The position numbers and the translations under genes were made by a program. A stretch of 64,000 nucleotides of DNA. Origin: Candidatus Babelota bacterium (GTDB lineage: Bacteria; Babelota; Babeliae; Babelales; Vermiphilaceae). Of this stretch, positions 5,399-61,665 are shown in pieces. The notes below the pieces were generated by a model, which was not told the origin of the DNA, made no database searches, and saw only the letters and a list, made by a program, of their open reading frames with translations. The stretch covers positions 25,129 to 89,128 of the forward strand of contig JAJCZE010000016.1 in the NCBI GenBank assembly GCA_029262555.1, read 5' to 3'. Each line of letters starts with the position of its first letter. Within the stretch, counting starts at the first letter, position 1.

Positions 5399-5504
5399 TA
5401 CAGTAGTAAGTGATGCATTCAGATTGTGAAATGTGAATGCGCGATTATTTCTAACACGTGCGTCATAGATTCATGAAATCGATCAGAACTGTGACAATTA
5501 AAAA

Positions 5505-5590
5505 GGAAAGTAGATACAAAAATAACAATACGTCTGCTGCTTTCTTTCGAACCTGACAGGGTATGTATCGCATTCCTTATCTACTTTCCC
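5505..5590 (-). ncRNA. ffs: Small (4.5S-type) signal recognition particle RNA
   Basis: The minus strand reads GGGAAAGTAGATA...CCTGTCAGGTTCGAAAGAAAGCAGCAG...TATCTACTTTCC followed by TTTTT. The central segment matches the conserved SRP domain IV (E. coli GGUCAGGUCCGGAAGGAAGCAGCC), here with a GAAA tetraloop. The ends form a 12-bp terminal stem. It sits directly upstream of dnaX, as in Bacillus. Boundaries are approximate. Confidence 0.7.
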
Positions 5591-5709
5591 AATTTTTATT
5601 TTCCGACTTGAATCCGCGTCGACCCAATGGTCCATCTACGCCTATAGCAGCTTCGGACAATCTTGCGCAAATAATGGCAAAGCCAGACGAAGCTCGCAAG
5701 AGCGAAGAC

Positions 5710-5801
5710 TGGTGGAGAGAGAGGGATTCGAACCCTCGATGCCCCTTTCGAGACATACATGATTTCCAATCATGCTCCTTCGGCCACTCAGACACCTCTC
5801 C
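5710..5801 (-). tRNA. tRNA-Ser (anticodon GGA), CCA encoded
   Basis: The minus strand reads GGAGAGGTGTCTGAGTGGCCGAAGGAGCATGATTGGAAATCATGTATGTCTCGAAAGGGGCATCGAGGGTTCGAATCCCTCTCTCTCCACCA. I can see the acceptor stem, the anticodon loop T-T-GGA-A-A, a long variable arm (class II tRNA) and the T-arm GAGGG/TTCGAAT/CCCTC. Confidence 0.9.
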
Positions 5802-5832
5802 AAACCGATGCATATTTCAATTGAATAACAAT

Positions 5833-6759: not shown

Positions 6760-6857
6760 GAGATCCTTTCTCTAAAGCCATACGGTAACTATAGGTAAAA
6801 GTATACCGTAATACAGCAATAATTCAACGTTTTATACACTGGGAAACCTACGTGTGG

Positions 6858-8402: not shown

Positions 8403-9770
8403 CTAACAAACAACTTCGTTTTTCTCGATTGCAGCATTGTATGTTTTTGCAATGTATAATGCCGCAAACAACCAAATTGTAATCAAGCCACCCGAAACCA
8501 TCGTGCTAATAGAAAGGAAATAAGCAACCCCTTCCAATGTGCCATACTGAGCTGACAATGATCCACGGAATGTATTAATAGCTGAGCCCCCACCTTTTGA
8601 AAGACGAGACCCAAACATTTCAATCCATGCTTGAGATTTATATTTCGTTTCTTTAGTTGTTGGAATATAAAGCTGTTTTAACGTTGGCTGGTTTAATGCA
8701 TAGTTAATCGCTTTAGCAAGTACCATAATCCAAAACGCAGCTGCAAGCCATGTTGGATTAAATTTAACCATCAACACTGCACCTGTTACCAAAAGAGGTA
8801 GCAAAACCAAAGAAGCTCTTATACCAAGCCTTCTTTGAATATTGTTAATACCAAGAAGTACACACATCATTGAAACAAAACCAGTAAGATACGCATACTC
8901 AGACATATACGATGAAAGAGACGCTTCATCGAGATACACTGAAGCCGCTGTAGACTTAAAGTGAAAATCAAGAATAGTAATAATTACTTCATAAATTGTA
9001 ACAATCAAAAAGATACCAAATAGGTACGGCTGAGTCAGTAAAAGCTTTAAGCCTTCTAAGAAGCCGGGCTCTTCTGAAGCCTCTTTCTTCTCTTCTTTTT
9101 CAGACTCGTAACCTGCAAACTGAGCCGCAGGAACAATACGAACCATCAACCAGAAAAGAACCGCCATTAAAAGCATCAAGCCACCACAAATAGCTACAAT
9201 CGGAGCACTTGTTGTAAGCCCAAGACGCCTTGCATTCAGGAAAAATGGACCAACCATGTTTCCAAGTTGACCAAATAGTGCGATGAATGGGAATCCACGA
9301 CGTGCAGAGTCTGGAAGCGTTGTATCTGTTGTAAATGCCCAGAAAAGAGCAACAATCAATGACCCAAAGCTTTCAACATAAATATACCAGAACCAACCAA
9401 GCATACGCGTTGGGCTCTTAACCGTATTTGCGAGTCCATACTCTGGATTCATTAAGAAAAATGCAAATGTGAGTGCAAGTGCTGCATAGATTGAAATCAG
9501 CACATAGAACACTTTATGACGAGGGAATGTATCAATTAACTTACTGTACATGATAACCAGAGGAAAAACGACAAACATAGAAAGGATTTTAGCAGTTGGC
9601 TGCCAGCTTTCTAATCCAACGATCGCATTGAAAATACCATCCTTCATAGGACGCAATGTCCAGTACGTTCCAATAATAAGACCAAAAATAGAAGCCAAGA
9701 AACCAAATTTCTTCAGCTCATCGGTGCTATCAAATTTACCCCAAAGAGCTGTAGCAATACGCTTAAACAT
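8403..9770 (-). CDS. ntt: ATP/ADP (nucleotide) translocase, NTT/Tlc family, copy 2
   Basis: About 455 aa and polytopic. FWAFTTDTTLPDSARRGFPFI aligns with the same signature region in copy 1. The proteins are collinear throughout (KILSMFV, YIPT.K..K.KS.AWI..FGS...K.GGS). I prefer the start at MFKRIAT (9770) over the upstream ATG at 9806. Confidence 0.88.
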   Translation of the reverse strand: MFKRIATALWGKFDSTDELKKFGFLASIFGLIIGTYWTLRPMKDGIFNAIVGLESWQPTAKILSMFVVFPLVIMYSKLIDTFPRHKVFYVLISIYAALALTFAFFLMNPEYGLANTVKSPTRMLGWFWYIYVESFGSLIVALFWAFTTDTTLPDSARRGFPFIALFGQLGNMVGPFFLNARRLGLTTSAPIVAICGGLMLLMAVLFWLMVRIVPAAQFAGYESEKEEKKEASEEPGFLEGLKLLLTQPYLFGIFLIVTIYEVIITILDFHFKSTAASVYLDEASLSSYMSEYAYLTGFVSMMCVLLGINNIQRRLGIRASLVLLPLLVTGAVLMVKFNPTWLAAAFWIMVLAKAINYALNQPTLKQLYIPTTKETKYKSQAWIEMFGSRLSKGGGSAINTFRGSLSAQYGTLEGVAYFLSISTMVSGGLITIWLFAALYIAKTYNAAIEKNEVVC

Positions 9771-10127
9771 GCAGGTATTTCCTTCCTGATAATAAAAAAA
9801 GAACAATAAGAAACTGTCTAACTTCCTTTATGTTAGCAGACAACTTAATAATTGTAAAAATAATCATTGTTGAAAATTCTCATTCGAAAAAAATCATAAT
9901 GCCTGGCAATATCACATATTTAGGCCTCTCCGCACAGCGTTACAATTTGAAACGATAAATCAGGCCTCATTTCGAGACTTCAAGCAGCCTCTCCTTATAA
10001 AAAGAACCCCCATTTCATTGACAAATCGCTCAATGCCGATACCCTGATAATGTGGATTATTCTCATACTATAGGGGGATAAGTCCCCACTCAAATTGCAA
10101 TAAGAAAAATTAAAAGGGAATAAAACG

Positions 10128-27302: not shown

Positions 27303-29494
27303 TGAAACGCATACTACTGACGCTACTCACTTTCCCCTTTTTACGTGGGTCAGAAATAACAAAAAAAATCCGTGTCGATGCCAAGCAAGAACTCGTAGAC
27401 TATTTTTACTTAAATATGGGACCTTTGTTTGATTCGTCCACTCAAATGTTTCGTATAAAAAATATATTGAATCAACGATCAACTAGCACCGAGAATATAC
27501 ACTTTGTTGGTATAGCGGATGTTAAAATGTGTTTACGGCCTGCTATACGCGCATACAATAACAAACTCGAAGAAGCCGTTAGATCATTTAACTTAACAGC
27601 CTTAAAAGCTTCAAGGCGATTTTTAACAGACAAATTAAGCGAACGAACTCTTTCCGACAATGAGCGCATTATATATTCCAAACAAATGCAATTACTCATA
27701 TATCATTATAATTCACAAAACATGCAAAATTTTATAGCCATTGTAGAGTCGGACTCACATGAAGAAGCTGCGGTATCGCTCTCTAGCTTACAATCTCAAT
27801 ATCATATGGGCGGATTAAATCAAGATGCCCTAAAAATTGCAGAAGAAGCTTTTCTTTCTCGGTCAGAAGCAGAAGGACTGCGGCAGTTTCACTATCCACT
27901 AGGTACAAATCTAGCTCCTTGGGTAAAATACTACCAGGATTGTGATAAAGAACGATTAGAAGGAGATTGGCTTTCTCTTAATGCAAAAGAAGGCAAATTG
28001 GAATCGCGCTTAAAGGATCCAGATCTCTCCCCCGAGGTCCGATTACATTTGCAACGGGAAAAAGACATTGTAAGTAGCATGCTTCGTCACCACTCAACGA
28101 CACCACTTATGGCAGTACGTCAAGGAAATCCTCGCTCAGCTTTGATTGCATGGAGAAATTTAGAGCAGTGGTGTAAAGATGGGCAAATTGATAGTAAAAC
28201 GTTTCAAGCGGCAAAAACTTTTTATTTACAGCGAAAAGATGTGCATGAATTGGAAGATTCTGCTGCAATAAGTGTTGAAAAACCTACTGAAACAGTTAGC
28301 TCTACAGTCGATGCAAAAATAGACTCTTCGTCCCAACTTGCAAGCGAATTTCTTAATACCGAGTTTGGTATCACACCTGATCGATATTTTAATTTCTCTG
28401 GCACGGCTGAACAGCTTAAAAATGATGCCGTTATCAAGCAAGCTCTTAATAACAATGTCAGTTATTTGCATCAGGCAAAAACGATTGAAGAGCAAGGAAT
28501 GTGGGCTGTAGCGATTCAAGCTAATGTGGAAGCATTTAAGCAAAATGAATCGGGAGCGCTCCAAGGGGCTACGTTTAGTGCGCAATCATTAGATCAGTCT
28601 GAATTGGTCGAAATTGCGTCTCAAGTGGTATCTCGGATAGGCGATAATGCGCAACACCCAATCAGCTTCATTCAAGAAAAAGTTGCCGAAGTTGCCAACA
28701 TTGGATGTGCAATAGCGGATCTTACTATTGGCCAAGCATTCCGAACTCCTGAACAGCAAGTACAGCGCATTCAAGAATTTGCTGCAACAATAGATTCTTA
28801 TGCCGGCTTGCCGTGGGCAGAAAAAAAGACAATCTTTGTAAATGCAATTGCGGATATTATTACTGTAACTGGATTTGCGACTGCAGGGAAAATGGTTACA
28901 AGCCTTGCTGCAAATATTCCCCAATATCTTCCCGCAATTACTGCCGCATTTTCGGAAGGAACCAGTGAACTATTAAGCGCATTAAGCGAGACGCTTTATG
29001 GTGCAAGCTTTAGTGGTGGTGGCGCAGCCGCTGCGCAAACATCTGCATCGCAGGAAGTGATTGCAAACTCAATTGCGCAAGTCGCGAGTGGATTTGCAGT
29101 GGCTATAGCTGCTGATGGATCAGCCACAGTAAGCATGCCCGATCCCTCTTCTGTATTACGGCAGGATAGTGAGAAAACAACTGGCGGTAGCGCTCCTGAT
29201 GTAGTAAAATCTAAGCCAGCGAAAACGGTTGATGATTTGATAAGTGAAGCAACGTTTAGAAAGCAAAAAAGAAGGGCTAAAATCTATGATAAATGTGGAA
29301 CATATCAAGACATGTTAAAAGATTTTGAAAATATGAATCTTACAGAAGTTAGAGATATTTCTTCGGGCAAACTTGGTAAACTTCCTGATGGAAAAGCTGT
29401 AACAGCCCGAATGAAAAGCTCTGACGGGGCTCCCACATTGGAAATTTTTAATCCTATCAAAAACAAAAGTGTTAAATTTAGATATGGAGATTGA
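27299..29494 (+). CDS. Large hypothetical protein (731 aa) with a short C-terminal toxin-like module
   Basis: Uninterrupted ORF coupled at both ends by 4-nt overlaps. The body is long and helix-rich, followed by a Gly/Ala/Ser-rich linker (GASFSGGGAAAAQTSAS...). The terminal module of about 90 aa reads KIYDKCGTYQDMLKDF...GKLGKLPDGKAVTARMKSSDGAPTLEIFNPIKNKSVKFRYGD. Its size, position and pattern are typical of the C-terminal domains of polymorphic toxins (inference). Confidence 0.7.
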   Translation: MMKRILLTLLTFPFLRGSEITKKIRVDAKQELVDYFYLNMGPLFDSSTQMFRIKNILNQRSTSTENIHFVGIADVKMCLRPAIRAYNNKLEEAVRSFNLTALKASRRFLTDKLSERTLSDNERIIYSKQMQLLIYHYNSQNMQNFIAIVESDSHEEAAVSLSSLQSQYHMGGLNQDALKIAEEAFLSRSEAEGLRQFHYPLGTNLAPWVKYYQDCDKERLEGDWLSLNAKEGKLESRLKDPDLSPEVRLHLQREKDIVSSMLRHHSTTPLMAVRQGNPRSALIAWRNLEQWCKDGQIDSKTFQAAKTFYLQRKDVHELEDSAAISVEKPTETVSSTVDAKIDSSSQLASEFLNTEFGITPDRYFNFSGTAEQLKNDAVIKQALNNNVSYLHQAKTIEEQGMWAVAIQANVEAFKQNESGALQGATFSAQSLDQSELVEIASQVVSRIGDNAQHPISFIQEKVAEVANIGCAIADLTIGQAFRTPEQQVQRIQEFAATIDSYAGLPWAEKKTIFVNAIADIITVTGFATAGKMVTSLAANIPQYLPAITAAFSEGTSELLSALSETLYGASFSGGGAAAAQTSASQEVIANSIAQVASGFAVAIAADGSATVSMPDPSSVLRQDSEKTTGGSAPDVVKSKPAKTVDDLISEATFRKQKRRAKIYDKCGTYQDMLKDFENMNLTEVRDISSGKLGKLPDGKAVTARMKSSDGAPTLEIFNPIKNKSVKFRYGD

Positions 29495-29496
29495 GT

Positions 29497-29907
29497 ATGC
29501 CAGAAAACTGGATGACATGGGAAGCTGCAAAAGGCCTAAATGCTAAATATTACATCGATACTATTTTAGATTCAGATGATGATGGGTTTATTATTGAGTT
29601 ATCTGAACAAAATAATAACAAAAAGAAGGTGCGAATTACATTTAAAGATTGGGTATGGTCTTATAAATACGTCCAAGAGATCTTTGCTACTAATAGACTT
29701 GATGAGGTAAGAGGCAAACATGAAAAAGATTTTTTCAAAGGACGCACTTTTTTTAAAATTTCTGAATCAAACTATTTACGCCAGTTATCTCAAGAATCCT
29801 CTGACATTTTGAATTATTATGGAGGAGCAATTCATTTTTGTTTTGTATCTGCTGAATCTATATTAGATGTAATTGCTAATTATGAGCCCACTATTGAATT
29901 TATTTAA
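29497..29907 (+). CDS. Immunity-like small cytoplasmic protein, paralogue A
   Basis: GGAGA RBS 7 nt upstream of the ATG at 29497, which lies 2 nt after the stop of the 731-aa gene. It is about 136 aa with no signal peptide, and is paralogous to the next ORF. Confidence 0.7.
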   Translation: MPENWMTWEAAKGLNAKYYIDTILDSDDDGFIIELSEQNNNKKKVRITFKDWVWSYKYVQEIFATNRLDEVRGKHEKDFFKGRTFFKISESNYLRQLSQESSDILNYYGGAIHFCFVSAESILDVIANYEPTIEFI

Positions 29908-29917
29908 GAAAAACAAT

Positions 29918-30349
29918 ATGACGAATAAAATGGAAAAATGGAAAAAGTGGGTGCCGACTAAAAACATTCCGGGTACATTATATTATGAAGAAATTGTCAG
30001 CAATAAAAAAGGTTTAACGTTATTATTTTCAGATGAATCAAATACCAAAACAATAAAAATTACGTTTAACGGACTAGTTTACTCATATAGGTTTACAGAA
30101 GAAGGATGCTTATTAAAAACATTGGACTATCTAGTAGATACACATAAGAAAAAAGACTTTCATGGTTGGTGTATGTTTGAAGTACAAAATTCAAACTACT
30201 TAACCTGGTTTAAAGAAGAATCCTATGATGCGTATGATACAGAAACATTTGCCCATTATGCCATTTATACCGAAGATGGATTAATCGAAGTGCTTTCTCC
30301 CTATCCTCCCGAAATTGAAGTCAAAGACCTTGTTAAGAGCTCAAAATGA
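29918..30349 (+). CDS. Immunity-like small cytoplasmic protein, paralogue B
   Basis: Three blocks align between the two paralogues: KTIKITFNGLVYSYRFTEE with KKVRITFKDWVWSYKYVQE, FEVQNSNYLTWFKEES with FKISESNYLRQLSQES, and HYAIYTEDGLIEVLSPYPPEIEV with HFCFVSAESILDVIANYEPTIEFI. The start is uncertain (29918 or 29930). The stop overlaps the next start. Confidence 0.7.
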   Translation: MTNKMEKWKKWVPTKNIPGTLYYEEIVSNKKGLTLLFSDESNTKTIKITFNGLVYSYRFTEEGCLLKTLDYLVDTHKKKDFHGWCMFEVQNSNYLTWFKEESYDAYDTETFAHYAIYTEDGLIEVLSPYPPEIEVKDLVKSSK

Positions 30350-49785: not shown

Positions 49786-50145
49786 GTGAAAAAACTAATG
49801 AATTTTAAAGTCATACAAGAAGTAGCTAATATATTTTTCTTCACCAATATTTGCAATCCAGTTACTTGGTTTTTGGTGGGGGACATAGCGATTCTTTTAT
49901 TTAAAAAATCTATTTCTTCCGATGAAAAAGGTGCTCTTGTTTTTTTATATCGATTAAATATCGTAGTCGCATCTCTAGCAACTATTCTTATTGGAGGACT
50001 ACTTGCTCTTCTTGGCGGATCAGGTGGGGCCCCAATGCATGATTGGAAATATTTTGTATCGGGATTAAGTGCTGTATTTATCATATGGATGGTTGTACTA
50101 AGAAAAGCTTATTTATATCTATTATCAAAAGACTCTAAAAATTAG
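49786..50145 (+). CDS. Hypothetical small membrane protein
   Basis: Three hydrophobic helices. I prefer it over the overlapping minus-strand ORF 49743..50084, whose translation is low-complexity and Pro/Arg-rich. It starts at GTG. Confidence 0.5.
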   Translation: MKKLMNFKVIQEVANIFFFTNICNPVTWFLVGDIAILLFKKSISSDEKGALVFLYRLNIVVASLATILIGGLLALLGGSGGAPMHDWKYFVSGLSAVFIIWMVVLRKAYLYLLSKDSKN

Positions 50146-51005
50146 TCTCCCCTAGCCGTTCGCCCTGCCTGCCAGGCGTAGCCTTGGCGTAGACTGGAGC
50201 GTGTCGAAGGGTTCTGAGCGGAAAAAATTATTTTTCTAAATAACTGATCACCAACAACTCGATCTGAGTCTAAAATTTCTTTTGAAAAAGATGATATTTT
50301 ATACGCAAGCACAGACTCTATAAACGTATCTATTTTTTCATTTCGTGGAATGATATCGCTTTCTTGTGCAGTCGATTTTAAAGCAATCAGCTTCCCAATA
50401 TCTTGATCAAAATCTATATATGGAGCAAGCCCTGTTCGTAAGGATTTCATATCCATGGGGGGCAACGTGCCATGCACTTCAATCCATTTAAAAGCAAATG
50501 CCGGACGAATCGCATAGCAATACAATTTCACTTTCACGCTCTGCTCATCGCATTCTATTTGTTTCCAAATTGCCTGGAACAACTTATAATAATGCGTTTT
50601 TATATGCTCAAGATCGGCAGTTTTTTGAACATACTGCCAGAGCTCATCGACGATCGTTTTTTCTGTTTTATAAACAATGGGCGATTGCAACCATTCAATC
50701 AATATTGAATTTGATTTCAGCGCTAAATAAAGTGCTTTTCGAATATCCCACCCGTTTAAATCTAACGGCACTCCGAGCTGAGGATCGTGCAAAATATCAG
50801 TTTCTAATACATCTCTCTGCTGAATAATAGAAAAATAATCATCATAGGGCCGTACATATAAAAATCGCACATCATAATCGCTATCAACTGAGGGAAAGCC
50901 CCACGCACGACTGCCAGACTCTATTGCAAAAATAATAGTAACTTTATGCGTACTTTCAAACTCGGTCAGTTTTTGCGCGATATGATTGTTTATAGCGGTG
51001 GTCAT
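50142..51005 (-). CDS. COG3541 / pfam10127-type nucleotidyltransferase (Pol-beta superfamily), copy 1
   Basis: The NTase motif AIESGSRAWGFPSVDSDYDVRFLYV and LNGWDIRKALYLALKSNSILIEWLQSPIVY are typical of this family. The last 25 or so codons (...NPSTRSSLRQGYAWQAGRTARGD) come from a dispersed repeat. The start overlaps the stop of copy 2 (ATGA). Confidence 0.85.
   Translation of the reverse strand: MTTAINNHIAQKLTEFESTHKVTIIFAIESGSRAWGFPSVDSDYDVRFLYVRPYDDYFSIIQQRDVLETDILHDPQLGVPLDLNGWDIRKALYLALKSNSILIEWLQSPIVYKTEKTIVDELWQYVQKTADLEHIKTHYYKLFQAIWKQIECDEQSVKVKLYCYAIRPAFAFKWIEVHGTLPPMDMKSLRTGLAPYIDFDQDIGKLIALKSTAQESDIIPRNEKIDTFIESVLAYKISSFSKEILDSDRVVGDQLFRKIIFSAQNPSTRSSLRQGYAWQAGRTARGD
50146..50222. 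repeat. Solo arm of the palindromic element, with an internal insertion, embedded in a gene's 3' end
   Basis: The minus strand reads CCCTTCGACACGCTCCAG, then an insert of about 26 nt, then CAGGGCGAACGG. Compare the left arm of the 31233 element, CCCTTCGACAAGCTCAGGGCGAACGG. Confidence 0.5.
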
Positions 51006-52009
51006 GATAATTCTGCTTTTTGTATTTGTTGTAAATATGTCTTTTCAATAAAATCATCAATTAAATGTGGATCACTGGCCTCGGGTAACGTTGATTTCAA
51101 GGCAAGCGCTTCCACCTTGCCTACTAACTGTTCAATTTCTTGCAACACCTCATCATATGAGATGGTTCCTAATTTGATGGCAAATAAGCGCTCTCGCTCT
51201 GGACGTGGAAAAGTAAGGCGATGATCGGTAAGAAATTCCAATGCTTGATGCCCAATGCGAACTGCATGCGATAGCGCCTTCCAATCAGCCCCTGAGTTTT
51301 GTTCAGCCTGTTTTGCCCGGTCGCCATATTGATGAATAACGTTTTGCACAATTTGACGTGCATTTTTAATAGATGCATGAAATGCAATTTTTTTTCCGCA
51401 AACTTGCAGATGCTTCTCTGTAATACCATTTGGCTGCATAAACGAAGTTATTGAAAGATCTGAATGAGCAGAAACAACTGGCATCACTGTATCTATAGTT
51501 TTTACAAGCGGGGCCATTGTTCCATATGTTTGTTCTGCCGATAACAGCACTTCCAATACAGCTCGTGCTGCACTCAATTTTGATCCCTTTTTGCCATACT
51601 TATATGCCTGCTGCTTGCAATACGCCACAAACGATGCCGCTTGTTTAGTTAATAATTGCATCGATAATTTCTTCATCTCATTCCACAGATGATCTGGTGG
51701 CTCTAAAAAAGATGATTCGGGAGCAAAAAGCATTTCTAATGCAAAAGATTGCCCTTTGGCAACAGAACGCAAAAATTTTTCTGGGCTATACAACTCAAAA
51801 TCAGTATCGGTAGAATCATTTTTCTCTCCCAGCCCTTTACTTCGAGTGGCAACAATAACTGGCTCTACTCGCTGCAAAAGGATGTCACGAGCCGAAGGAA
51901 GATAAACGCCCTTGATGTCCAAATCTGATTGAGGGGTATTGGTGCCGTAAAGATGCGATCCATATCGTATCAGCACTATGGATTTATATTTTTTTTTATT
52001 TTGCATCAT
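51002..52009 (-). CDS. COG3541 / pfam10127-type nucleotidyltransferase, copy 2 (long form)
   Basis: The NTase motif YGSHLYGTNTPQSDLDIKGVY, ALEMLFAPES and the C-terminal helical region (YGDRAKQAEQNSGADWKALSHAVRIGHQALEFL) are typical of the family. I prefer an ATG at 52009 or 52006 over the TTG at 52018. Confidence 0.85.
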   Translation of the reverse strand: MMQNKKKYKSIVLIRYGSHLYGTNTPQSDLDIKGVYLPSARDILLQRVEPVIVATRSKGLGEKNDSTDTDFELYSPEKFLRSVAKGQSFALEMLFAPESSFLEPPDHLWNEMKKLSMQLLTKQAASFVAYCKQQAYKYGKKGSKLSAARAVLEVLLSAEQTYGTMAPLVKTIDTVMPVVSAHSDLSITSFMQPNGITEKHLQVCGKKIAFHASIKNARQIVQNVIHQYGDRAKQAEQNSGADWKALSHAVRIGHQALEFLTDHRLTFPRPERERLFAIKLGTISYDEVLQEIEQLVGKVEALALKSTLPEASDPHLIDDFIEKTYLQQIQKAELS

Positions 52010-52021
52010 ATATATCAATTA
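51854..52021. repeat. 168-bp direct repeat, copy 1 (5' end and start region of NTase copy 2)
   Basis: It aligns base for base with 52654-52821, an offset of exactly 800 bp, with about 11 mismatches by eye. The distal 90 bp or so has a single mismatch. Confidence 0.9.
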
Positions 52022-52143
52022 TTGAAAAAGTTTGTATCAATTCATCTGCCATGATTGAAATCGTCTCACAATGCCATTAATTACACTATCCAGTCGCCAG
52101 TATTAGCATTAAGTGGACCAAAAATATAGAAATGCTTTTTTAT

Positions 52144-52614
52144 TTATTTATCTTTTAAAATTCCTTGGTGCTGCTTTTCTTCATCAAAATATTTAATTAA
52201 AAAAGTTTTACTTAAAAAAGGATTTTTCTTATTGATTCTAACAAACTCTACCTCAAAACCGCATTTCTTATAAAAACCTGGAGCTTGAAAATGAGAGGTG
52301 ACAAGATTTATGTTGTTATATCCTTTGCCTTTGAAAAAACTCTCTAATTCTGTCAGCAATTTGCGCCCTAAATTTCTACGTCGATATGAAGGATGTACCC
52401 ATATATCATCAATATAAATTTCTGAAAACGCTGTATAGGCCTGCAAAGCTCCTATTACAATACCGCTTTTATCCTTCATTACAAAAATAATCTTTTTATA
52501 ATTGCAAACAATTCCCTTTTTAGTCTCATCATTTACATGTCCTTGATAAATCAAATCTTCTATACTCGAAGGAAGTTTATCAAGTTTTTCTATTATATAA
52601 CCCTGATTATTCAT
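52144..52614 (-). CDS. GNAT family N-acetyltransferase
   Basis: 156 aa with acetyl-CoA motif A (VHPSYRRRNLGRKLLTELESF) and the C-terminal FYKKCGFE. Confidence 0.88.
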   Translation of the reverse strand: MNNQGYIIEKLDKLPSSIEDLIYQGHVNDETKKGIVCNYKKIIFVMKDKSGIVIGALQAYTAFSEIYIDDIWVHPSYRRRNLGRKLLTELESFFKGKGYNNINLVTSHFQAPGFYKKCGFEVEFVRINKKNPFLSKTFLIKYFDEEKQHQGILKDK

Positions 52615-52647
52615 TATGCATTTCTTTTTTTACAATGTTTTGTTCAA

Positions 52648-52809
52648 TTAAAAAATAACCGGCTCTACTCGCTGCAAAAGAATGTCGCGAGACGAAGGAA
52701 GGTAGATGCCCTTAATGTCCAAATCTGATTGAGGAGTATTGGTACCGTAAAGATGCGATCCATATCGTATCAGCACTATGGATTTATATTTTTTTTTGTT
52801 TTGCATCAT
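52648..52809 (-). pseudogene. Truncated N-terminal fragment (53 codons) of a COG3541 nucleotidyltransferase
   Basis: It translates to MMQNKKKYKSIVLIRYGSHLYGTNTPQSDLDIKGIYLPSSRDILLQRVEPVIF-stop. This nearly matches the first 51 or so residues of the 51002..52009 product, then ends where the repeat ends. Confidence 0.8.
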
Positions 52810-52821
52810 ATATATCAATTA
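52654..52821. repeat. 168-bp direct repeat, copy 2
   Basis: See copy 1. This copy contains the stop codon of the 245-aa ORF and the NTase fragment. Confidence 0.9.
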
Positions 52822-53521
52822 CCTTTTGAGCGCATGCTTGTAATTCTTGAGCTAATAATTCATTGAATTTTGTTTTCTCGTCATTTTCATAAAGAATATT
52901 TGATAAACAATAAAGGCGTTTTAACTGAAGAAAAAGCGTATAGGATATTCCAGAGTAAACATCTGGATTTTCTAATATACAGCTACTTCGTGCTAAAAAA
53001 TTCTCTACGTTATTTGAAATGAAAAAACCTTCATTATGCTTACTCATTTTTTTTAAATAACCAATAAACGGCTCCACATGCTTTTCAATTAGTTCATTAG
53101 TATACTCAAGGCTATATTCACGCTCTGCTCCAATGATCGAAGGGATCTTGTTATTTTTTTTATGCAATTTTATCGATTTTTTAATATGTATGCTTAACCT
53201 TTTTGCAAGCTCACTAACTTCTTTCCATTGTTCTGTCTTTGAAAAATTATCAAGCATCTCATAGCCTATGATCAAAAAACTAAACATTTGAAATCTTTGG
53301 AATAACTCTAGACCGGTGATTCCGATGATTTGTTGAAAATCAGGAGCATGGCCTTCTAGGATATCAAAGCTCATTGAGCTCGGAAGCCCATGACAATCAA
53401 AACCACACCAAAAATCCATTTCCTGGATATTTTTCTCGATATTGGGATCTGCGATAAAATCAAGAGTGGAACACCATTCGTTTATAAGTATGCTATATAA
53501 GCGCTCATTAGAAAGATTCAC
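52784..53521 (-). CDS. Hypothetical protein (245 aa), AT-rich
   Basis: Uninterrupted ORF with a GTG start that overlaps (GTGA) the stop of a 37-codon upstream ORF. Its last 8 or so codons and its stop lie inside repeat copy 2. No family recognised. Confidence 0.6.
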   Translation of the reverse strand: MNLSNERLYSILINEWCSTLDFIADPNIEKNIQEMDFWCGFDCHGLPSSMSFDILEGHAPDFQQIIGITGLELFQRFQMFSFLIIGYEMLDNFSKTEQWKEVSELAKRLSIHIKKSIKLHKKNNKIPSIIGAEREYSLEYTNELIEKHVEPFIGYLKKMSKHNEGFFISNNVENFLARSSCILENPDVYSGISYTLFLQLKRLYCLSNILYENDEKTKFNELLAQELQACAQKVIDIYDAKQKKI

Positions 53522-53631
53522 TGAATGTATCGCCTTTGTAATAAAAGAAATTCAAGAATTCCTTTTGCCTCTTGAGTGGATTTATCTACGATAAGAAGTG
53601 CAAGATGAATCTTAATTACGTCGATATTCAT
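53518..53631 (-). CDS. Possible 37-aa leader or small protein coupled to the 245-aa ORF
   Basis: AAGAGG RBS 6 nt upstream of the ATG. The product is MNIDVIKIHLALLIVDKSTQEAKGILEFLLLQRRYIQ. Its stop overlaps the GTG start of the next ORF. It is below the ORF-track cutoff, and no homology is recognised. Confidence 0.4.
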   Translation of the reverse strand: MNIDVIKIHLALLIVDKSTQEAKGILEFLLLQRRYIQ

Positions 53632-53746
53632 ATATGGCCTCTTATATGCTATTTTTGAATTATGAGACTCACCTTTATAATATTATATAAGCCCATTTAT
53701 GACAATCTACTAAAACAGATGGTTTTTGTGGTTTAAAAAGGCAAAC

Positions 53747-54511
53747 ATGCATAATTTTCTTGATCTTATAAAAAGGCAAAAGGTTGCTGACGTAAAAAGG
53801 CTTCTTAAAGACGGCATTGATCCAAATATTCCAAAAATCATCTCAACTGATCCGTATGTGGTCGAACTATTCCCCTTAATCGTGGCTGTTAAAACTGGAA
53901 ATTTGGAGATCGTAAAACTCCTTATTGCACATGGAGCAAAGGTTGATGTAAGTACCATTTCTGATGGCCAAACGCCACTACACACTGCATTTTTTATTAA
54001 TGGCGACTATCCACAAGCCTTTACTCAAAAAGAGGGTGCGCAAAAAATAACTGAAATGGTCCATTATTTAGTTTCGCTCGGCGCAGATATAAATGCCGAA
54101 GGTGGATTTTGCCTTACCCCCTTTTTATTGGCAATAGACGCAGTAAAGAAGAAATGCGTCGATGTGAGCTTGCTGCAATATTTAATTGATCATGGTGCAG
54201 ATGTAAATAAAGTGCTTACGTGCGTTGATGAAAATAAATCTCGAACCACTGCGCTTGGCGCGGCAATAGAAGTGCATAGTTTAGATACAGGAGGACACCC
54301 CAAGTTCATAAACTTGGAGATTTTTGCATTGCTCATCAAAAACGGAGCTGACCCATCAATTAACCCAAAGGGATTTACTCCACTTCAAGAAGCGTTCGAT
54401 ATACAAGAACAATTGCAAAACAACTTAACCAACTTGAAACAACAAATTAATAACGCTGAGAAAATTGTTGAATATTTAAAATCCGCAACGCAAATCAATA
54501 ACAATGAATAA
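53747..54511 (+). CDS. Ankyrin-repeat protein
   Basis: ANK units such as FPLIVAVKTGNLEIVKLLIAHGAKVD and QTPLHTAFF. I prefer the ATG at 53747 over the TTG at 53726. The stop overlaps the next start. Confidence 0.88.
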   Translation: MHNFLDLIKRQKVADVKRLLKDGIDPNIPKIISTDPYVVELFPLIVAVKTGNLEIVKLLIAHGAKVDVSTISDGQTPLHTAFFINGDYPQAFTQKEGAQKITEMVHYLVSLGADINAEGGFCLTPFLLAIDAVKKKCVDVSLLQYLIDHGADVNKVLTCVDENKSRTTALGAAIEVHSLDTGGHPKFINLEIFALLIKNGADPSINPKGFTPLQEAFDIQEQLQNNLTNLKQQINNAEKIVEYLKSATQINNNE

Positions 54512-55223
54512 AGTTACCGAACTCATCCAAACAATTAAGTCAAATGACGAAGTACTGGTCGAAAAACTTCTCACGCAGGGTGCAGATCCAAATGGGTATA
54601 TGCCTGAAGCAGATACACGTATCTTTACAGGAGCAACTACTCCTTTAATGGCTGCATCCCGTCAAAAAAATACCGCAATTTTAAAACTTCTCGTTCGATT
54701 TGGCCTTACAATACAAGGAGCTGAACCATTGCGTGCTGCAATCGCTCCAAACTATTTATTGCAAGCTCGAATTTCACAAGACGAGGTTCGCATGCGTACG
54801 ATGGAAACAATAAAATATTTAGTCTATCACGGTGCTGATTTGAATGCCCCTGATGAGCTCTTCGAACTAACACCATTCTTGATGGCGATCTATGAAAATG
54901 ACCTAGAATTAGTAGCATTTTTTATTGATCAGGGTGCAATTATAAATCAAATCTCAAAAAAACGAAATACAAAACTGGTTACTCCCCTTTTAGCTGCCAT
55001 TGAAACACATTCAGCTCCAATAGTTAAGCTGCTCTTGAAACATGGAGGAAACGCGAATCAAATCGTTGAACATAAAGAGCCGCTTCAATACTCTCGAGAT
55101 ACGCTTACATTACTTAAAACTAATGCCAATAAAATACAAAAACTATCTACCAACAACGATAAAATTATCGATCTATTGGTTCGTAACGGCGCCAAGACTG
55201 ATTATCCATGGATAGATAAATAA
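54504..55223 (+). CDS. Ankyrin-repeat protein
   Basis: ANK units: TTPLMAASRQKNTAILKLLVRFG, TPFLMAIYENDLELVAFFIDQGA and VTPLLAAIETHSAPIVKLLLKHGGNAN. Confidence 0.88.
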   Translation: MNKVTELIQTIKSNDEVLVEKLLTQGADPNGYMPEADTRIFTGATTPLMAASRQKNTAILKLLVRFGLTIQGAEPLRAAIAPNYLLQARISQDEVRMRTMETIKYLVYHGADLNAPDELFELTPFLMAIYENDLELVAFFIDQGAIINQISKKRNTKLVTPLLAAIETHSAPIVKLLLKHGGNANQIVEHKEPLQYSRDTLTLLKTNANKIQKLSTNNDKIIDLLVRNGAKTDYPWIDK

Positions 55224-56834: not shown

Positions 56835-56925
56835 ATAGACGATTTTATTGCGGTTTTAATCAAACATGATACCATGAAAACTATGGAAAAACCGCCACTG
56901 AAATCGTTTTTGATTGGATATCATT

Positions 56926-58581
56926 ATGAAAGAAATTAAAAACTTATCACAAGAACAAATGCTCCGTGCAGAAAATGCACGGAAAAAAATTCTTTCTCTT
57001 TTTATGCATCGGCATGGTGAGTTGAGTGAGTTTAGTACCCTCACGCGCATTAAGGAGTTGCTAAAAACGCCAGGCCTTGACTTGCAAACTGATCTTCATG
57101 GTACCCTGGCTTCCGCTCTCGAGTCGGCTATGGTGTTTTTTTCAGAAGCTGTGAAACTCATTCTTCCTTATCTTTCTTCCCAACAAATACTTTCTTACTC
57201 AAACATACATGGACGCACACTGTTAATGAGTGCAGCACAATTTGACCGAAACGGTGAGGTGACTCAGTTAATTCTAGATGCTGGAGCAACGGCTGAGTAT
57301 GTTAATGCAAAAACTGAACTTGGCACAACAGCGCTTCATTTTGCCTGTCGAGAAGGAAATTTTGATGCAGTGAAACTTTTGGCTCCGCATATATCGGCTG
57401 GAGAAATTGTTGCGAAAGACAAAACAGCTTTTTCGCCCCTGATGATTGCCGCAGCACAAGGGTATGAACACATTGTGCAGTTTTTGGTTCAGGCCGGAAT
57501 TAGCGGGAAAATCGCATCCGATTTTGATGATGACCTTGCAATCGAAAGCGCATTAGGTATGGCCGCGGTACATGGAAACTTCGAATGTACTCGGGTGCTA
57601 TTGCAAGATGGAATAAACGGGATAACTCCCGAGCTTATTTGCAAAAAAGACTCATTGGGAAGAACGATCTTTTCAGAAACCGCACTTTATGGGCACGTTG
57701 ATGTTGTGTCTCTTCTTATTGATCGAGGCTTAACGGGCGATCAGATAAATATTCAAAACAATGAGGGTTTCACGCCACTTATGAGTGCTGCTTATGATGG
57801 CAATCTCGACATGGTTGAGCGATTGCTACCTCATTTGCACGCAACACATCTTCAGGCGAAAAATGATGATGATAAGACGGCGTTAGATTTGGCGGTAGAT
57901 CAAGGACATGCTGATGTTGCAAGCATGCTGGTAACTGCGCTGCACAAAAAAACATGCGAAGAGACTGTTTTTCCAATCTTGCGAACTGTCGCTAAATCAA
58001 ACAATGCGGATATGCTTTTAAATCTGTGGAGTACTGGATTTGTTCAAGATCATCTTGAGTATCAAGACAAAGAGGGATTGAACCTACTCATGATAGCGGC
58101 AGCTCATGGAGCTACAGATGTAATGAAGATTCTGATTGAATATCACAATGATTTCAGCTTAAAAAAAACCACGATAGACGGAAAAACAGCACTCATGTAT
58201 GCAATTCAAACCGGCATACATGATTCAGTTAAGATGTTGCTGGATGCGGGGGCCTCTTTAGATTGTCATGATGTTACAGGAGAAACACCCTTAATGATGG
58301 CAGCGCGATGGGACAAAGAAATGGTGCAGCTTTTACTTGATAGCGGGCTGACGTACGAAGATATTTCGTGGCACGATAATTATGGACACACTGCGCTTAT
58401 GAATGCAGCTGAATCGGGAGATGCGCAAACAATACGCCTTCTTCTCGATTCCGGATTGACTCTCAAAGATATCAATCGGACAGATGGTACCTCTGGTATG
58501 GCAGCTATCGACTATGCAGAAACAGATGAAATTAAGCGCCTTATTCAAGATCGATTAGATGAATTAACAGAAAAAGCATAA
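56926..58581 (+). CDS. Ankyrin-repeat protein (array member 1)
   Basis: More than 10 ANK units (for example GTTALHFACREGNFDAVKLL and FTPLMSAAYDGNLDMVERLL). C-terminal motif AIDYAETDEIKRLIQDRL. ATG at 56926. The stop overlaps the next start (TAATG). Confidence 0.9.
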   Translation: MKEIKNLSQEQMLRAENARKKILSLFMHRHGELSEFSTLTRIKELLKTPGLDLQTDLHGTLASALESAMVFFSEAVKLILPYLSSQQILSYSNIHGRTLLMSAAQFDRNGEVTQLILDAGATAEYVNAKTELGTTALHFACREGNFDAVKLLAPHISAGEIVAKDKTAFSPLMIAAAQGYEHIVQFLVQAGISGKIASDFDDDLAIESALGMAAVHGNFECTRVLLQDGINGITPELICKKDSLGRTIFSETALYGHVDVVSLLIDRGLTGDQINIQNNEGFTPLMSAAYDGNLDMVERLLPHLHATHLQAKNDDDKTALDLAVDQGHADVASMLVTALHKKTCEETVFPILRTVAKSNNADMLLNLWSTGFVQDHLEYQDKEGLNLLMIAAAHGATDVMKILIEYHNDFSLKKTTIDGKTALMYAIQTGIHDSVKMLLDAGASLDCHDVTGETPLMMAARWDKEMVQLLLDSGLTYEDISWHDNYGHTALMNAAESGDAQTIRLLLDSGLTLKDINRTDGTSGMAAIDYAETDEIKRLIQDRLDELTEKA

Positions 58582-60263
58582 TGTCCAAACACCCTGTAAA
58601 CCACTCACAATTACATCCTGATAAAGCAAGTAAAGCACTCTTGCGTGCAAGTCAAAGCGGGGATCTGCAAAAAGTTAAAGCCCTTTTGAACGTTCCTGGT
58701 ATTGATTTCAATGCTCAAGATGAAGATGGTGATACTCCGTTGATGCTTGCATGCCTAGAAGGCCATGTTGAAATCGTTTCGCTATTATTGAAACATGGAC
58801 CACAATCACAACTAAATCTGCGCGATCACGAACAGGAAACCGCTTTGTTTTTAGCGGCAGGACAAGGACATTTAGACGTTATTAAAATAATATTAGATTG
58901 CAACCTTTCGCCTGAACAACTCAATGCGCAATGCGATATAGGAATGACGCCCTTGATTATCAGCATTACAGAAGGTCATTCTGCCATTGCATCCCTTTTA
59001 ATTTCTCGATTATCACCAGCACAGCTCTCGATTCAAGACAATACAGGAATGACGTCGCTGATGTATGCACTAAGTAAAGGCAATACCGAAATTGCAAAAA
59101 TGATTTTAGCTGCTGTGATGGATGCCAAACAGCTATCAATTCAATGTGAAGAGGGATGGACTGCATTGATGTGGGCAAGTATGCAAAAAGAAGATGACAT
59201 CATCAACCTTCTTCTGGATGCGGGCTTATCACCAGAGCAAGTCAACTTAGAAAATAAGCGTAGTCGAACCGCTTTGATGATAGCAACGCATGCGGGACAT
59301 CTAAAAATAGTAGAATCTTTTTTAAAAAAAATTGATTCAAGCGAAATCATTCGTGCCAATAAATATGGCGAAACGGCACTTTTAATGTCTGCGCGAATGG
59401 GTAACGCAAAATGTATTACATTGCTTCTTGAATATCTTGATGAAGATCAGGTGCGTGATCATGGAATACGGCCATTAATTGATGCTATATGGTATCAATA
59501 TATCGATATTGTAAAATTACTCGTTGATGCAGGGATTGATCAAAAAGATATTTTAACGCCCTATAAAAAAAGTAAGCCCGACCCATCACCCTTGCTCTAT
59601 TCAATTGCTAAAGGAAATGAACAAATTATTCAAACGTTACTTTCAAAAATATCCTCTATAAAAAAAATCGACGAAGCTATCGTGAAAACTCATCTACTCA
59701 AAGCAATTGAAGTTGGAAGTATGGATGCATTTGAGTATTTTTTGCCACACATATCCAAATCTGAATTGTGCGCCTCGTCGAGACTCCAAAACGATAGAAA
59801 CCCCTATCTAATGGCTGCTATTAATCATAATCAAGTGGTAATGGTAGAACGACTTTTAAAAGAAGGGGTCCCTGCGGGAGGCTGGCACTATCATTATTAT
59901 CACGAATGGCTTGATGAAAATTCTGAATCTTCTCCAGCGCTATTTACTGCTACGCAAAAAGGGTATGTCGAAATAGTAAAACTTCTTCTTGAAAAAGTAT
60001 CATTAGCGCAGGTAGGACATCATATATGGGATAGTTATCACAATCCCGGTGATGATCAATGCTGTAGCGAATATTTGGATGGCACTACGGCTCTTATGGC
60101 CGCCGCTCAAAATGGACACTTTGAAGTTGTAGCATTACTTCTCGATGCAGGGTTAAATCAAGAGCATATTCTTTATGAGGATAATAACTTTAAAACTGCT
60201 TTAGATTTAGCTGCAACAGATGAAATAAAAAAGTTGATTGAAGAGAGACTAAAAGAACAATAG
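58581..60263 (+). CDS. Ankyrin-repeat protein (array member 2)
   Basis: Multiple ANK units (DGDTPLMLACLEGHVEIVSLLLKHG and others). C-terminal motif ALDLAATDEIKKLIEERL. Confidence 0.9.
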   Translation: MSKHPVNHSQLHPDKASKALLRASQSGDLQKVKALLNVPGIDFNAQDEDGDTPLMLACLEGHVEIVSLLLKHGPQSQLNLRDHEQETALFLAAGQGHLDVIKIILDCNLSPEQLNAQCDIGMTPLIISITEGHSAIASLLISRLSPAQLSIQDNTGMTSLMYALSKGNTEIAKMILAAVMDAKQLSIQCEEGWTALMWASMQKEDDIINLLLDAGLSPEQVNLENKRSRTALMIATHAGHLKIVESFLKKIDSSEIIRANKYGETALLMSARMGNAKCITLLLEYLDEDQVRDHGIRPLIDAIWYQYIDIVKLLVDAGIDQKDILTPYKKSKPDPSPLLYSIAKGNEQIIQTLLSKISSIKKIDEAIVKTHLLKAIEVGSMDAFEYFLPHISKSELCASSRLQNDRNPYLMAAINHNQVVMVERLLKEGVPAGGWHYHYYHEWLDENSESSPALFTATQKGYVEIVKLLLEKVSLAQVGHHIWDSYHNPGDDQCCSEYLDGTTALMAAAQNGHFEVVALLLDAGLNQEHILYEDNNFKTALDLAATDEIKKLIEERLKEQ

Positions 60264-60273
60264 TGAGACTTGA

Positions 60274-61665
60274 ATGGGACTAGGTGTACAAGATTCAATA
60301 AAGCGATATTTTAAAGCTATTGCGGATGTAGATAGCAAAAAATGCCTTTTTTTATTAAAGGTGTCCGCATTACAACAAAAGCCATTTTGGGAAGGAGTTA
60401 AGGGGGAGTGTAACACGACAGTTTTGATGGCGGCAGCAAGAAAGGGTTTTTTTAACATTGTAAAGTTGATAGTGGAATCGGGGGCAAATGTTAATGCTAA
60501 AAGCAGTTCTGGCTGGACAGCTTTAATGTCTGCTGCATGCAATCTAGAGGTTTTAAAATATTTAGTAGATGCCGGAGCCGAAGTCAATGCACAAAATGAT
60601 TGTGGCGAGACGGCGTTGATCATTGCGGCAGGATGTGGGCAACTTGAAATTGTAAAGTATTTACTCCAAGTTGGAGCCGATCTTGACGCACAAACTGATT
60701 GTGGCGAAACGGCTTTGATCTGTGCGGCAGAGTATGGGCATCTTGAAACTATAAAATATTTATTGCATGTGGGAGCCAATCTTGATGCTAAAGATAAAGG
60801 TGGCAAGACAGCTTTAGATCGAGCATTGGCGAAAAAAGAGCAAGAGGCTGCAGAATTACTAATCCAGGCATCGTCAGGTGCCGACTCTAGAAAGAATGGT
60901 TGTAGCAATGCCTTATTGGATGCATTGTGCCGGGAAAGACTTGTAGATGATATTGAGGACCTAGGGGCATTATTCAAGAAAATTAAATATCTCTTGAAAT
61001 CAGGAGCCGATGTTGATGCTAAAGATGGGGATGACAAAACAGTTTTAATCCGGCTTGCATCGATAAAAGATTCATTGATTGGAGAAGGGGATTTACAAGA
61101 GATTGTAGAGTTTCTATTACAGGCGGGTGCCGATATTAACGCTAAAGACAGGAATGGGGATTCAGCTTTAAAGCTGGCTATGCTGAACAGATATTGGAAT
61201 ATTGCAAAACTTTTCATTCAGGCTGGTGCAAATGCCTACTCGAAAGACGCCCAGGAGGATACCATTATGAAGTGGGCTATATTGCATGAGAGTTATTTGG
61301 TGGAGGATATGTTTCAATCTGGAGCTGATATTAATTATAAAGATGATTATGGAATGACCCCGCTGATGTATGCTGCACGATCAAAGGATCATTATTGCGC
61401 TTTAACTGTTACATTTTTATTGGAGAACGGTGCGCATATAAATGAAAAAGACAATAATGGATGGACTGCGTTGATGCATAATGCTGCAACTCATTCAGTT
61501 GCTGTGCCGGATAAATTTCCTGCGCCTTGGGGGGATAAATTAGAGGTTGCAAAACGTTTTTTGCGGGCTGAAGCAGATCCCAACGTTAAAGACCATAAAG
61601 GACAGAGTGCACTTGATTTAGCTGCGACAGATGAAATAAAGAAGTTGATTGAAGATAAGTTGTAA
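60274..61665 (+). CDS. Ankyrin-repeat protein (array member 3)
   Basis: Multiple ANK units, including two adjacent 99-bp units that are highly similar at the DNA level. C-terminal motif ALDLAATDEIKKLIEDKL. Confidence 0.9.
   Translation: MGLGVQDSIKRYFKAIADVDSKKCLFLLKVSALQQKPFWEGVKGECNTTVLMAAARKGFFNIVKLIVESGANVNAKSSSGWTALMSAACNLEVLKYLVDAGAEVNAQNDCGETALIIAAGCGQLEIVKYLLQVGADLDAQTDCGETALICAAEYGHLETIKYLLHVGANLDAKDKGGKTALDRALAKKEQEAAELLIQASSGADSRKNGCSNALLDALCRERLVDDIEDLGALFKKIKYLLKSGADVDAKDGDDKTVLIRLASIKDSLIGEGDLQEIVEFLLQAGADINAKDRNGDSALKLAMLNRYWNIAKLFIQAGANAYSKDAQEDTIMKWAILHESYLVEDMFQSGADINYKDDYGMTPLMYAARSKDHYCALTVTFLLENGAHINEKDNNGWTALMHNAATHSVAVPDKFPAPWGDKLEVAKRFLRAEADPNVKDHKGQSALDLAATDEIKKLIEDKL

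Follow-up and report, generated by a model that had tools for sequence, protein, structure and literature searches.

A conserved pair of divergent RlaP-type nucleotidyltransferases beside a rare, predicted helical protein in a Babelota genome

Introduction

What do two adjacent, distantly related nucleotidyltransferase genes do in an apparently intracellular bacterium, and do the genes around them belong to the same system? The question is raised by a 64,000-nucleotide stretch of the genome of a Candidatus Babelota bacterium (assembly GCA_029262555.1, contig JAJCZE010000016.1, positions 25,129 to 89,128; hereafter the window), in which a string of genes occupies positions 50142–53631 of the minus strand. 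In the direction of transcription, the string comprises a 37-codon open reading frame (ORF), a gene for a 245-residue protein here called P245, and the genes of two Pol-beta-fold nucleotidyltransferases, NT2 and NT1. An earlier description of this DNA, made without database searches (the sequence-only reading), regarded these genes as one operon and as a candidate RNA-repair or conflict module. Here, we find that NT2 and NT1 form the core of the locus. They are divergent members of the RlaP family, appear to be inherited as a unit in many bacteria, and probably act on RNA ends.

RlaP was predicted by comparative genomics to restore nucleotides before ligation (PMC7824862, PMC6514570). Two Pseudomonas members, PfRlaP and PaRlaP, add one or two nucleoside monophosphates to RNA 3′-OH ends, with a preference for Mn2+, and are inactive on DNA and protein (PMC12776372). 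On a mimic of a cleaved tRNA, they favor the broken end at the anticodon loop, and they partly restore aminoacylation to a repaired tRNA from which one nucleotide had been missing, while the crystal structure of PfRlaP shows that the C-terminal helical domain and the nucleotidyltransferase domain together form an RNA cleft (PMC12776372). These measurements supersede the statement of the sequence-only reading that the biochemistry of the family is essentially uncharacterised.

Results

The two nucleotidyltransferases

NT1 (287 residues; 50142–51005, minus strand) is an RlaP nucleotidyltransferase of the YcgL type. It matches the RlaP family of Pfam (PF10127) with 225 bits (E value 1.6e-66; gathering score 23 bits) over model positions 2–229 of 249, and also phrog_14344 (4.7e-61). 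NT2 (51002–52009, minus strand) is of the NrdC.11 type. Its ORF of 338 residues (52018–51002) opens at a TTG at 52018, with the likely start at the ATG at 52009 or 52006. NT2 passes the PF10127 gathering score with 41.3 bits and matches phrog_388 over its full length (residues 5–335, E value 1.3e-76); its C-terminal 190 residues are matched by phrog_388 but not by PF10127. The two genes are joined by an ATGA overlap (…TTATCATGACC).

Both types are well represented in phages. Over 96% of its length, NT2 shares 31–34% identity with NrdC.11 from T4-like phages, and a tblastn search retrieved 1545 phage records of this type, some of them annotated nrdC.11. Proteins of the NT1 type, often annotated YcgL, were found in 78 phage records, many of them from jumbo phages over 250 kb. 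The two types are found in different phage groups.

The motifs quoted for the two enzymes in the sequence-only reading, ESGSRAWGFPSVDSDYD and YGSHLYGTNTPQSDLD, are present, and its assignment of both to one Pol-beta-fold family, as divergent members with GS…D.D motifs, is borne out by the Pfam matches. In alignments of 26 NT2 homologs, Gly16, Ser17, Asp28, Asp30, Asp67, Asp69 and Glu71 are invariant, as are Gly31, Ser32, Asp43, Asp45, Asp82 and Asp87 in 21 NT1 homologs. The Pol-beta signature of G[GS], DxD and a third acidic residue is therefore found in both enzymes. Since these positions are invariant, the catalytic residues of NT2 and NT1 are intact and not degenerate, a possibility that the sequence-only reading had raised against its own proposal.

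A profile–profile alignment of the two families is confined to a nucleotidyltransferase core of about 100 residues (hhalign E value 5e-4). As only this core aligns, the two enzymes are old paralogs, and not the products of a recent local duplication. Sequence searches of the Protein Data Bank (PDB) with NT1 and NT2 gave no match, in a copy of the database that apparently does not contain the PfRlaP structure.

A sister locus, recovered twice from metagenomes as the same relative (L001/L002), encodes nucleotidyltransferases about 80% identical to those of the window. The NT1 ortholog of this locus has 261 residues and does not contain the C-terminal extension of 26 residues present in NT1 (50142–50222). 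This extension is encoded by an unusually GC-rich stretch, of which the window has no second copy and for which no significant RNA fold is predicted (z = -1.15). Taken individually, each of the two enzymes is an ordinary member of a known and recently characterised family.

Conservation of the pair

The arrangement of the two genes is widespread. A scan of one genome per species identified 78 NT2 loci, 69 of which have enough downstream sequence to be evaluated. In 36 of these 69 genomes, NT1 is the next gene downstream of NT2, and in 19 of the 36 pairs the genes overlap by exactly 4 nucleotides. Pairwise distances among the NT2 proteins correlate with those among their NT1 partners over the 36 pairs (r = 0.83; none of 2000 Mantel permutations reached this value), while the genes flanking the pairs are otherwise highly variable. 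By these comparisons, NT2 and NT1 are a conserved, co-inherited and co-evolving unit of wide distribution.

Carriers of NT2 in the species survey are mostly Alphaproteobacteria, with further representatives in Thermodesulfobacteriota, Gammaproteobacteria, Nitrospina, Parachlamydiaceae/Chlamydiales and Odyssella. The best protein hits with a named source include those from Babeliales, a Rickettsia endosymbiont, Phycorickettsia, Rickettsiales, Chlamydiales, Coxiellaceae and Odyssella. Because several intracellular groups figure among the carriers and best hits, the presence of the pair in an intracellular bacterium is not unusual, which weakens the remark of the sequence-only reading that its retention in such a genome is notable.

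In the literature examined, which excludes the paper that named RlaP, we found no description of a coupled pair of an NrdC.11-type and a YcgL-type enzyme, and paired RlaP genes are not mentioned in the RlaP preprint (PMC12776372). In three genomes without NT1 (L043, L061 and L079), the gene directly after NT2 encodes an HD_4-domain phosphohydrolase of about 170–205 residues. An HD_4 gene also follows the NT1-type gene of a viral contig (L160). This phosphohydrolase may be an alternative end-healing partner.

Genomic links to RNA repair

RNA-repair genes stand beside the pair in 7 of the 36 cases. Hen1 and Pnkp are encoded directly upstream of the pair in four loci (L018, L029, L035 and L069), and RtcB and/or the TROVE protein Ro60 beside it in three others (L015, L023 and L064). 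Pfam confirmed the identities of these neighbors (PNKP_ligase for Pnkp, 1e-168; Hen1_L for Hen1, 3e-112; RtcB, 9e-126), and also identified Ro60/TROVE and the HD_4 phosphohydrolase. Carriers of the repair-linked pairs include Asticcacaulis species, a Chlamydiales metagenome-assembled genome and several Rhodospirillales, among others; in Asticcacaulis biprosthecium and A. solisilvae, both cultivable, the order is Hen1, Pnkp, NT2, NT1.

A similar association is observed in viruses. In a 302-kb viral contig (L144; IMGVR_UViG_3300045988_166019, positions 4029–6890), an NT2-like gene, an NT1-like gene and RtcB lie in a row on one strand. This is the only one of 71 viral contigs with both RlaP types. 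Across the same 71 contigs, NT1-type genes adjoin RtcB in eight and Ro60 in four.

A Pol-beta nucleotidyltransferase gene beside that of a small helical protein is also the general layout of toxin–antitoxin and anti-phage modules of the MNT-HEPN (type VII) or AbiEii/MenT-like kind, in which P245 would be the toxin or the antitoxin. Faint matches of both nucleotidyltransferases to the MntA antitoxin (13.6 and 16.2 bits) point the same way, but they fall far under the 60-bit cut-off. In PADLOC-DB, the only match was that of NT2 to PDC-S09, with a non-significant E value of 0.012, and nothing was retrieved for NT1, P245, the 37-codon ORF or the product of an acetyltransferase gene that lies between P245 and NT2. 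No HEPN, AbiEii or other toxin family was detected by Pfam at E ≤ 0.1, and the sole R-x3-4-H-like stretch of P245 is not conserved in its family. Moreover, the nucleotidyltransferase pair is conserved without P245 and found with RNA-repair genes. We therefore disfavor a toxin–antitoxin or defense module, which we regard as very unlikely. Of the two functions proposed in the sequence-only reading, RNA repair thus gains from the neighbors of the pair in bacteria and in one jumbo-phage contig, whereas the conflict function found no matching defense or toxin–antitoxin family.

The P245 family

P245 (GTG start; 52784–53521, minus strand) is 34% identical (E value 2e-39) to the product of a 246-residue gene at the same position in the sister locus. 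Other relatives are scarce: a word-index protein search returned only P245 itself, and an exhaustive search with HMMER among 1.84 billion cluster representatives yielded a family of 14 representatives, the query included. A scan of metagenomes gave only two loci, both already known, and a scan of viral sequences gave none. The family shares the motifs LDFLADPxIE, C-x-LDCC-x-GN, IIGIxGLE, GFS-x4-W-x-EF and NPDxYxG.

P245 does not belong to any Pfam, NCBIfam, PADLOC or PHROG family, and a Pfam search with all 14 members gave nothing consistent. A profile search of the PDB found nothing credible, and hhalign found no match between P245 and either nucleotidyltransferase family. As AlphaFold2 prediction from the single sequence was unusable (pLDDT 36.5), we used a model built from 13 sequences, which has ten helices, a pLDDT of 86.9 and a pTM of 0.84. 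Comparison of this model with the PDB and BFVD by Foldseek gave no significant match (best E values 0.27 and 0.21, respectively). P245 is thus a real gene whose product represents a new and very rare family, all-helical according to the model and without a fold match. The profile and structure searches proposed in the sequence-only reading thereby bear out its view that the protein belongs to no recognisable family.

This view does not extend to the 37-codon ORF (53518–53631, minus strand), which overlaps the P245 gene by GTGA and for which the sequence-only reading had likewise recognised no family. The ORF has no family match in Pfam, NCBIfam, PADLOC or PHROG. Because it has no equivalent in the sister locus, where its region fails to align, we consider that it is probably not a gene.

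The N-terminal part of the P245 family, about 120 residues, behaves as a separate module. It is present in three tandem copies in a 426-residue protein (P0254; L091, 3186–4466), and six proteins of 109–135 residues (P0247–P0251 and P0255) consist of this module only, some of which may be truncated.

The gene context of the P245 family is readable in eight lineages. In three of them, those of the window, of the sister locus and of a metagenomic lineage (L087/L088), the gene is located directly upstream of NT2 and NT1. In L087/L088, the order P245, NT2, NT1 is accompanied by different flanking genes. NT2 of L087 (7032–8011) is frameshifted into an N-terminal ORF of 83 codons and a C-terminal ORF of 269 codons, which reflects either a pseudogene or a sequencing error, and NT1 is intact. 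In a Babeliales genome, the P245-family gene lies in an ankyrin array, with a solo NT2 on the other strand at a distance of about 15 kb. The remaining four lineages have no nearby nucleotidyltransferase; in two of them the neighbors are ankyrin or leucine-rich repeat (LRR) genes, and the contigs of the other two, of 1.6 and 2.8 kb, are too short to reveal much of the surroundings.

With a family profile, no member of the P245 family was detected in any of the 78 NT2 loci of the species survey. Among the other pairs, the two closest ones (P0006 and P0010) are likewise without it and follow prs or rpoA–rplQ instead. The neighborhood survey that the sequence-only reading had called for thus finds the family with paired nucleotidyltransferases, but only in a small part of their range. 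P245 is thus linked to the pair within a small clade, but not generally, as the link is seen in three lineages only and is absent from the 78 NT2 loci.

Two explanations of P245 have to be weighed against these distributions. It may belong functionally to the pair as a third subunit or as a regulator, for instance one that targets substrates or inhibits the enzymes, so that the locus would encode a three-component system for RNA-end modification or conflict peculiar to protist-associated intracellular bacteria. Consistent with such a role are the position of P245 on the same strand directly upstream of the pair in three lineages, the 26-nucleotide overlap with the NT2 start conserved in the window and the sister locus, and the persistence of the trio in L087/L088 while the flanking genes changed. 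P245 also evolves much faster than the nucleotidyltransferases, as the comparison with the sister locus shows (34% against about 80% identity), which is often so for conflict-related partners. The absence of the family from the species-level NT2 loci and from the two closest other pairs argues against this role, as do the five lineages without an adjacent nucleotidyltransferase, where the context is of the ankyrin/LRR kind if the contig is long enough; the only solo NT2 seen is the distant, oppositely oriented gene of the Babeliales genome. In addition, the three cases of co-occurrence may go back to just one or two independent events, and in the window the coupling was broken by an insertion, described below, without visible loss of either gene. 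On balance, a subunit role appears unlikely.

Alternatively, P245 may be an unrelated accessory gene of a eukaryote-like intracellular repertoire, and the apparent operon an accident of a compact genome. Its relatives sit in ankyrin/LRR gene arrays (L081, L084–L086 and L091), and in the window it adjoins ankyrin-repeat gene arrays on the plus strand (53726–55223 and 56914–61665). P245 is also missing from nearly all pairs, and its low GC content resembles that of the inserted segment. Simple adjacency nevertheless predicts less than what is seen, namely the 26-nucleotide overlap shared by two genomes and a gene order that is retained in L087 between different flanking genes. We judge this explanation to have somewhat less than an even chance of being correct.

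Insertion of a GNAT gene

A gene for a 156-residue GNAT N-acetyltransferase (52144–52614, minus strand), which does not figure in the sequence-only reading, lies between P245 and the intact NT2. The protein matches Acetyltransf_7 (5.5e-15, 56 bits, cut-off 27) and Acetyltransf_1 (1.7e-14, 54.5 bits, cut-off 20.7) in Pfam. No NCBIfam equivalog reached its cut-off (best rimI, 39.8 bits against 86.4), and no close relative was found in viral contigs. By these matches, the protein is a generic RimI-like GNAT that we do not place in a specific subfamily.

The GNAT gene is carried by a segment of 629 nucleotides (52022–52650) bracketed by a direct repeat of 171 nucleotides, the two copies of which are 93% identical. 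The downstream copy (51851–52021, minus strand) is the 5′ end of the intact NT2. The upstream copy (52651–52821, minus strand) is a truncated 5′ fragment of NT2; it holds a 56-codon ORF (52818–52648) that duplicates the first 53 codons of NT2 and stops after codon 56, with the GS…DxD motif and without the region of the third catalytic carboxylate. The upstream copy has retained the old junction with P245, whose stop falls 26 nucleotides within the duplicated NT2 start region, close to the figure of about 25 given in the sequence-only reading.

The sister locus is syntenic on both sides, with gyrB, tilS and a TonB-like gene on one and ankyrin genes on the other. Its 246-residue gene is followed by NT2 (335 residues) and NT1 (261 residues), with overlaps of 26 and 4 nucleotides, and neither the GNAT gene nor the repeat is present. 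Judged by this syntenic genome, the arrangement without GNAT appears to be ancestral and the GNAT gene a recent insertion. The insertion would have duplicated 171 nucleotides of the 5′ end of NT2, so that a defunct fragment of 56 codons now precedes the segment and an intact NT2 follows it.

As the insertion places 800 nucleotides between P245 and the intact NT2, the coupling of these two genes is broken in this genome. Hence, the tight coupling described in the sequence-only reading holds for the ATGA junction of NT2 and NT1, but not for that of P245 and NT2. The strand, coordinates and GTGA and ATGA overlaps that it gave agree with our ORF list.

The repeat copies differ at 12 of 159 coding nucleotides, and nine of these differences are at third codon positions (binomial P = 0.004). 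Identity to the L002 ortholog is about 89–90% for either copy, and that between the copies is 92.5%. Although the numbers are small, this suggests that much of the divergence between the copies arose while both were parts of working genes. One possibility is that the GNAT gene arrived by recombination with the DNA of a related organism; the arrangement of repeat and GNAT gene is also possible as an assembly chimera.

The presence of an acetyltransferase next to nucleotidyltransferases might indicate a cluster for the modification of small molecules such as aminoglycosides, with ANT-like and AAC-like activities. Aminoglycoside nucleotidyltransferases (ANTs) are also Pol-beta-fold enzymes. The GNAT protein gives weak matches to the AAC(3)-I and AAC(6′) models (23 and 18.5 bits), but these scores are 7- to 10-fold under the cut-offs of 200 and 140 bits, and an antibiotic-modification role is disfavored. 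Furthermore, the GNAT gene is recent and absent from the sister genome, and is thus not part of the ancestral unit, and the nucleotidyltransferases match RlaP, of which the tested members act on RNA (PMC12776372). We consider such a cluster extremely improbable.

Other features of the window

The P245 gene and the inserted segment have a GC content of 0.318 and 0.293, respectively, against a window mean of 0.399, which substantiates the remark of the sequence-only reading that the region of the partner genes is AT-rich. Only one other island of low GC content occurs in the 64 kb. It is located at 29200–29900 (GC about 0.30–0.32) and overlaps the end of a 731-residue ORF and two short ORFs (29491–29907 and 29873–30349).

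Upstream of the gene string, a promoter-like site (TTGTCA-17-TATTAT, 10/12) is found at 53677–53705 on the minus strand. It is a candidate for the operon promoter only, and the evidence for it is weak, as such sites are no more numerous in the region than in shuffled sequence. The ankyrin-repeat arrays of the plus strand begin right beside this promoter region, and the sister locus and other loci of the P245 family are likewise embedded in ankyrin/LRR gene arrays.

Two tandem genes for TLC-family ATP/ADP translocases are encoded on the minus strand at 6858–8291 and 8403–9806 (PF03219; E values 2.8e-15 and 3.3e-32). Translocases of this family are a hallmark of energy-parasitic intracellular bacteria. 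The host of the window looks intracellular in view of these two genes and of the long ankyrin arrays. Its GyrB scores only 737 bits against that of E. coli, which speaks against a close origin from Gammaproteobacteria, and the nearest named relatives of the nucleotidyltransferases tentatively point to Babeliales/Dependentiae. The only two Rfam or tRNA matches in the window are a bacterial small signal recognition particle RNA (RF00169, 56 bits) and an adjacent tRNA-Ser(GGA) gene, on the minus strand at 5498–5801.

Discussion

The core of the locus is, in our interpretation, a translationally coupled pair of divergent RlaP nucleotidyltransferases, the NrdC.11-type NT2 followed by the YcgL-type NT1, which we think probably adds nucleotides to RNA ends in the repair of damaged RNA. 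By homology to the Pseudomonas RlaPs, each enzyme would extend RNA 3′-OH ends by one or two nucleotides from nucleoside triphosphates, preferably with Mn2+. In this way, nucleotides lost by trimming from cleaved tRNAs or rRNAs would be replaced, and an RNA ligase could then rebuild a working molecule. As NT2 and NT1 are inherited together, they probably carry out this task jointly, perhaps by handling different nucleotides or substrates or as a heterodimer. In this genome, the pair would be transcribed in a string starting with P245, a fast-evolving protein that may be accessory or regulatory, or unrelated to the pair.

A division of RNA 3′-end rebuilding between two related Pol-beta nucleotidyltransferases is known from the split CC-adding and A-adding tRNA nucleotidyltransferases. 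The likeness is one of analogy only, as these enzymes are members of another family, that of the class II CCA-adding enzymes, and have no sequence relation to RlaP beyond the fold.

Comparison with the closest known systems shows both likenesses and differences. The Pseudomonas enzymes share with the pair the PF10127 family, which NT1 matches nearly end to end, as well as the GS…DxD motif, the third carboxylate and, as proposed here, the chemistry. In contrast, the Pseudomonas gene is a single one in a ligase operon (rtcB–rlaP–rtcA; PMC12776372), whereas the window contains two anciently diverged and coupled paralogs. NT2 resembles NrdC.11 of phage T4 (phrog_388) along almost its whole length; the phage gene is solitary, while NT2 is bacterial and paired with NT1. 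In other genomes, the same NT2 and NT1 genes are found with Pnkp/Hen1 and RtcB/Ro60 (Rsr) repair operons, directly after Hen1–Pnkp or beside RtcB and/or Ro60. The MNT-HEPN systems resemble the locus in layout, and differ from it in the low MntA scores, in P245 having neither a HEPN match in Pfam nor a conserved R…H motif, and in the lack of a significant PADLOC match.

Several observations weigh against a role of the pair in RNA repair and against its expression from the P245 string. No gene for an RNA ligase, Pnkp, Hen1, RtcB or Ro60 is found within the 64-kb window, and 29 of the 36 pairs elsewhere likewise have no such repair gene within 6 kb, so that the link to repair comes from a minority of contexts. 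NT2 covers only the N-terminal half of the PF10127 model (14–144 of 249). The characterised RlaPs fall outside the NrdC.11 subcluster, with T4 NrdC.11 placed in a separate RlaP sequence cluster (cluster 5), and the measured activity is that of single, unpaired enzymes (PMC12776372). Finally, read-through transcription across the GNAT gene into NT2 is plausible, the sole ground for it being that no terminator-like site is predicted between the two genes.

A more far-reaching version of our interpretation is that RlaPs of the NrdC.11 and YcgL types work as an obligate machine of two enzymes, as a heterodimer or in sequence. In contrast to the promiscuous single RlaP, this machine would rebuild RNA 3′ ends with a defined order or specificity, and could do so without a dedicated neighboring ligase. 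P245 would then have been recruited as a targeting or regulatory subunit in a few protist-associated intracellular lineages. We regard this version as speculative and quite unlikely in its entirety.

What is new in this locus is the P245 protein, and the pair is a variant of a known RNA-repair module. P245 has a confidently modeled new helical fold without a known relative, and its link to the nucleotidyltransferases is weak, so that this particular locus is of modest practical value. The most useful lead is instead the pair as a general and testable system. RNA-end patching by RlaP has so far been shown with single-gene versions inside ligase operons, whereas about half of the NrdC.11-type RlaPs in the bacterial genomes surveyed are paired with a very different second RlaP, usually away from a ligase. 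If the two enzymes do divide the work or form a heterodimer, this could explain how correct nucleotides are restored by a template-independent enzyme, and would provide a testable function for T4 NrdC.11, a gene present in more than 1500 phage genomes.

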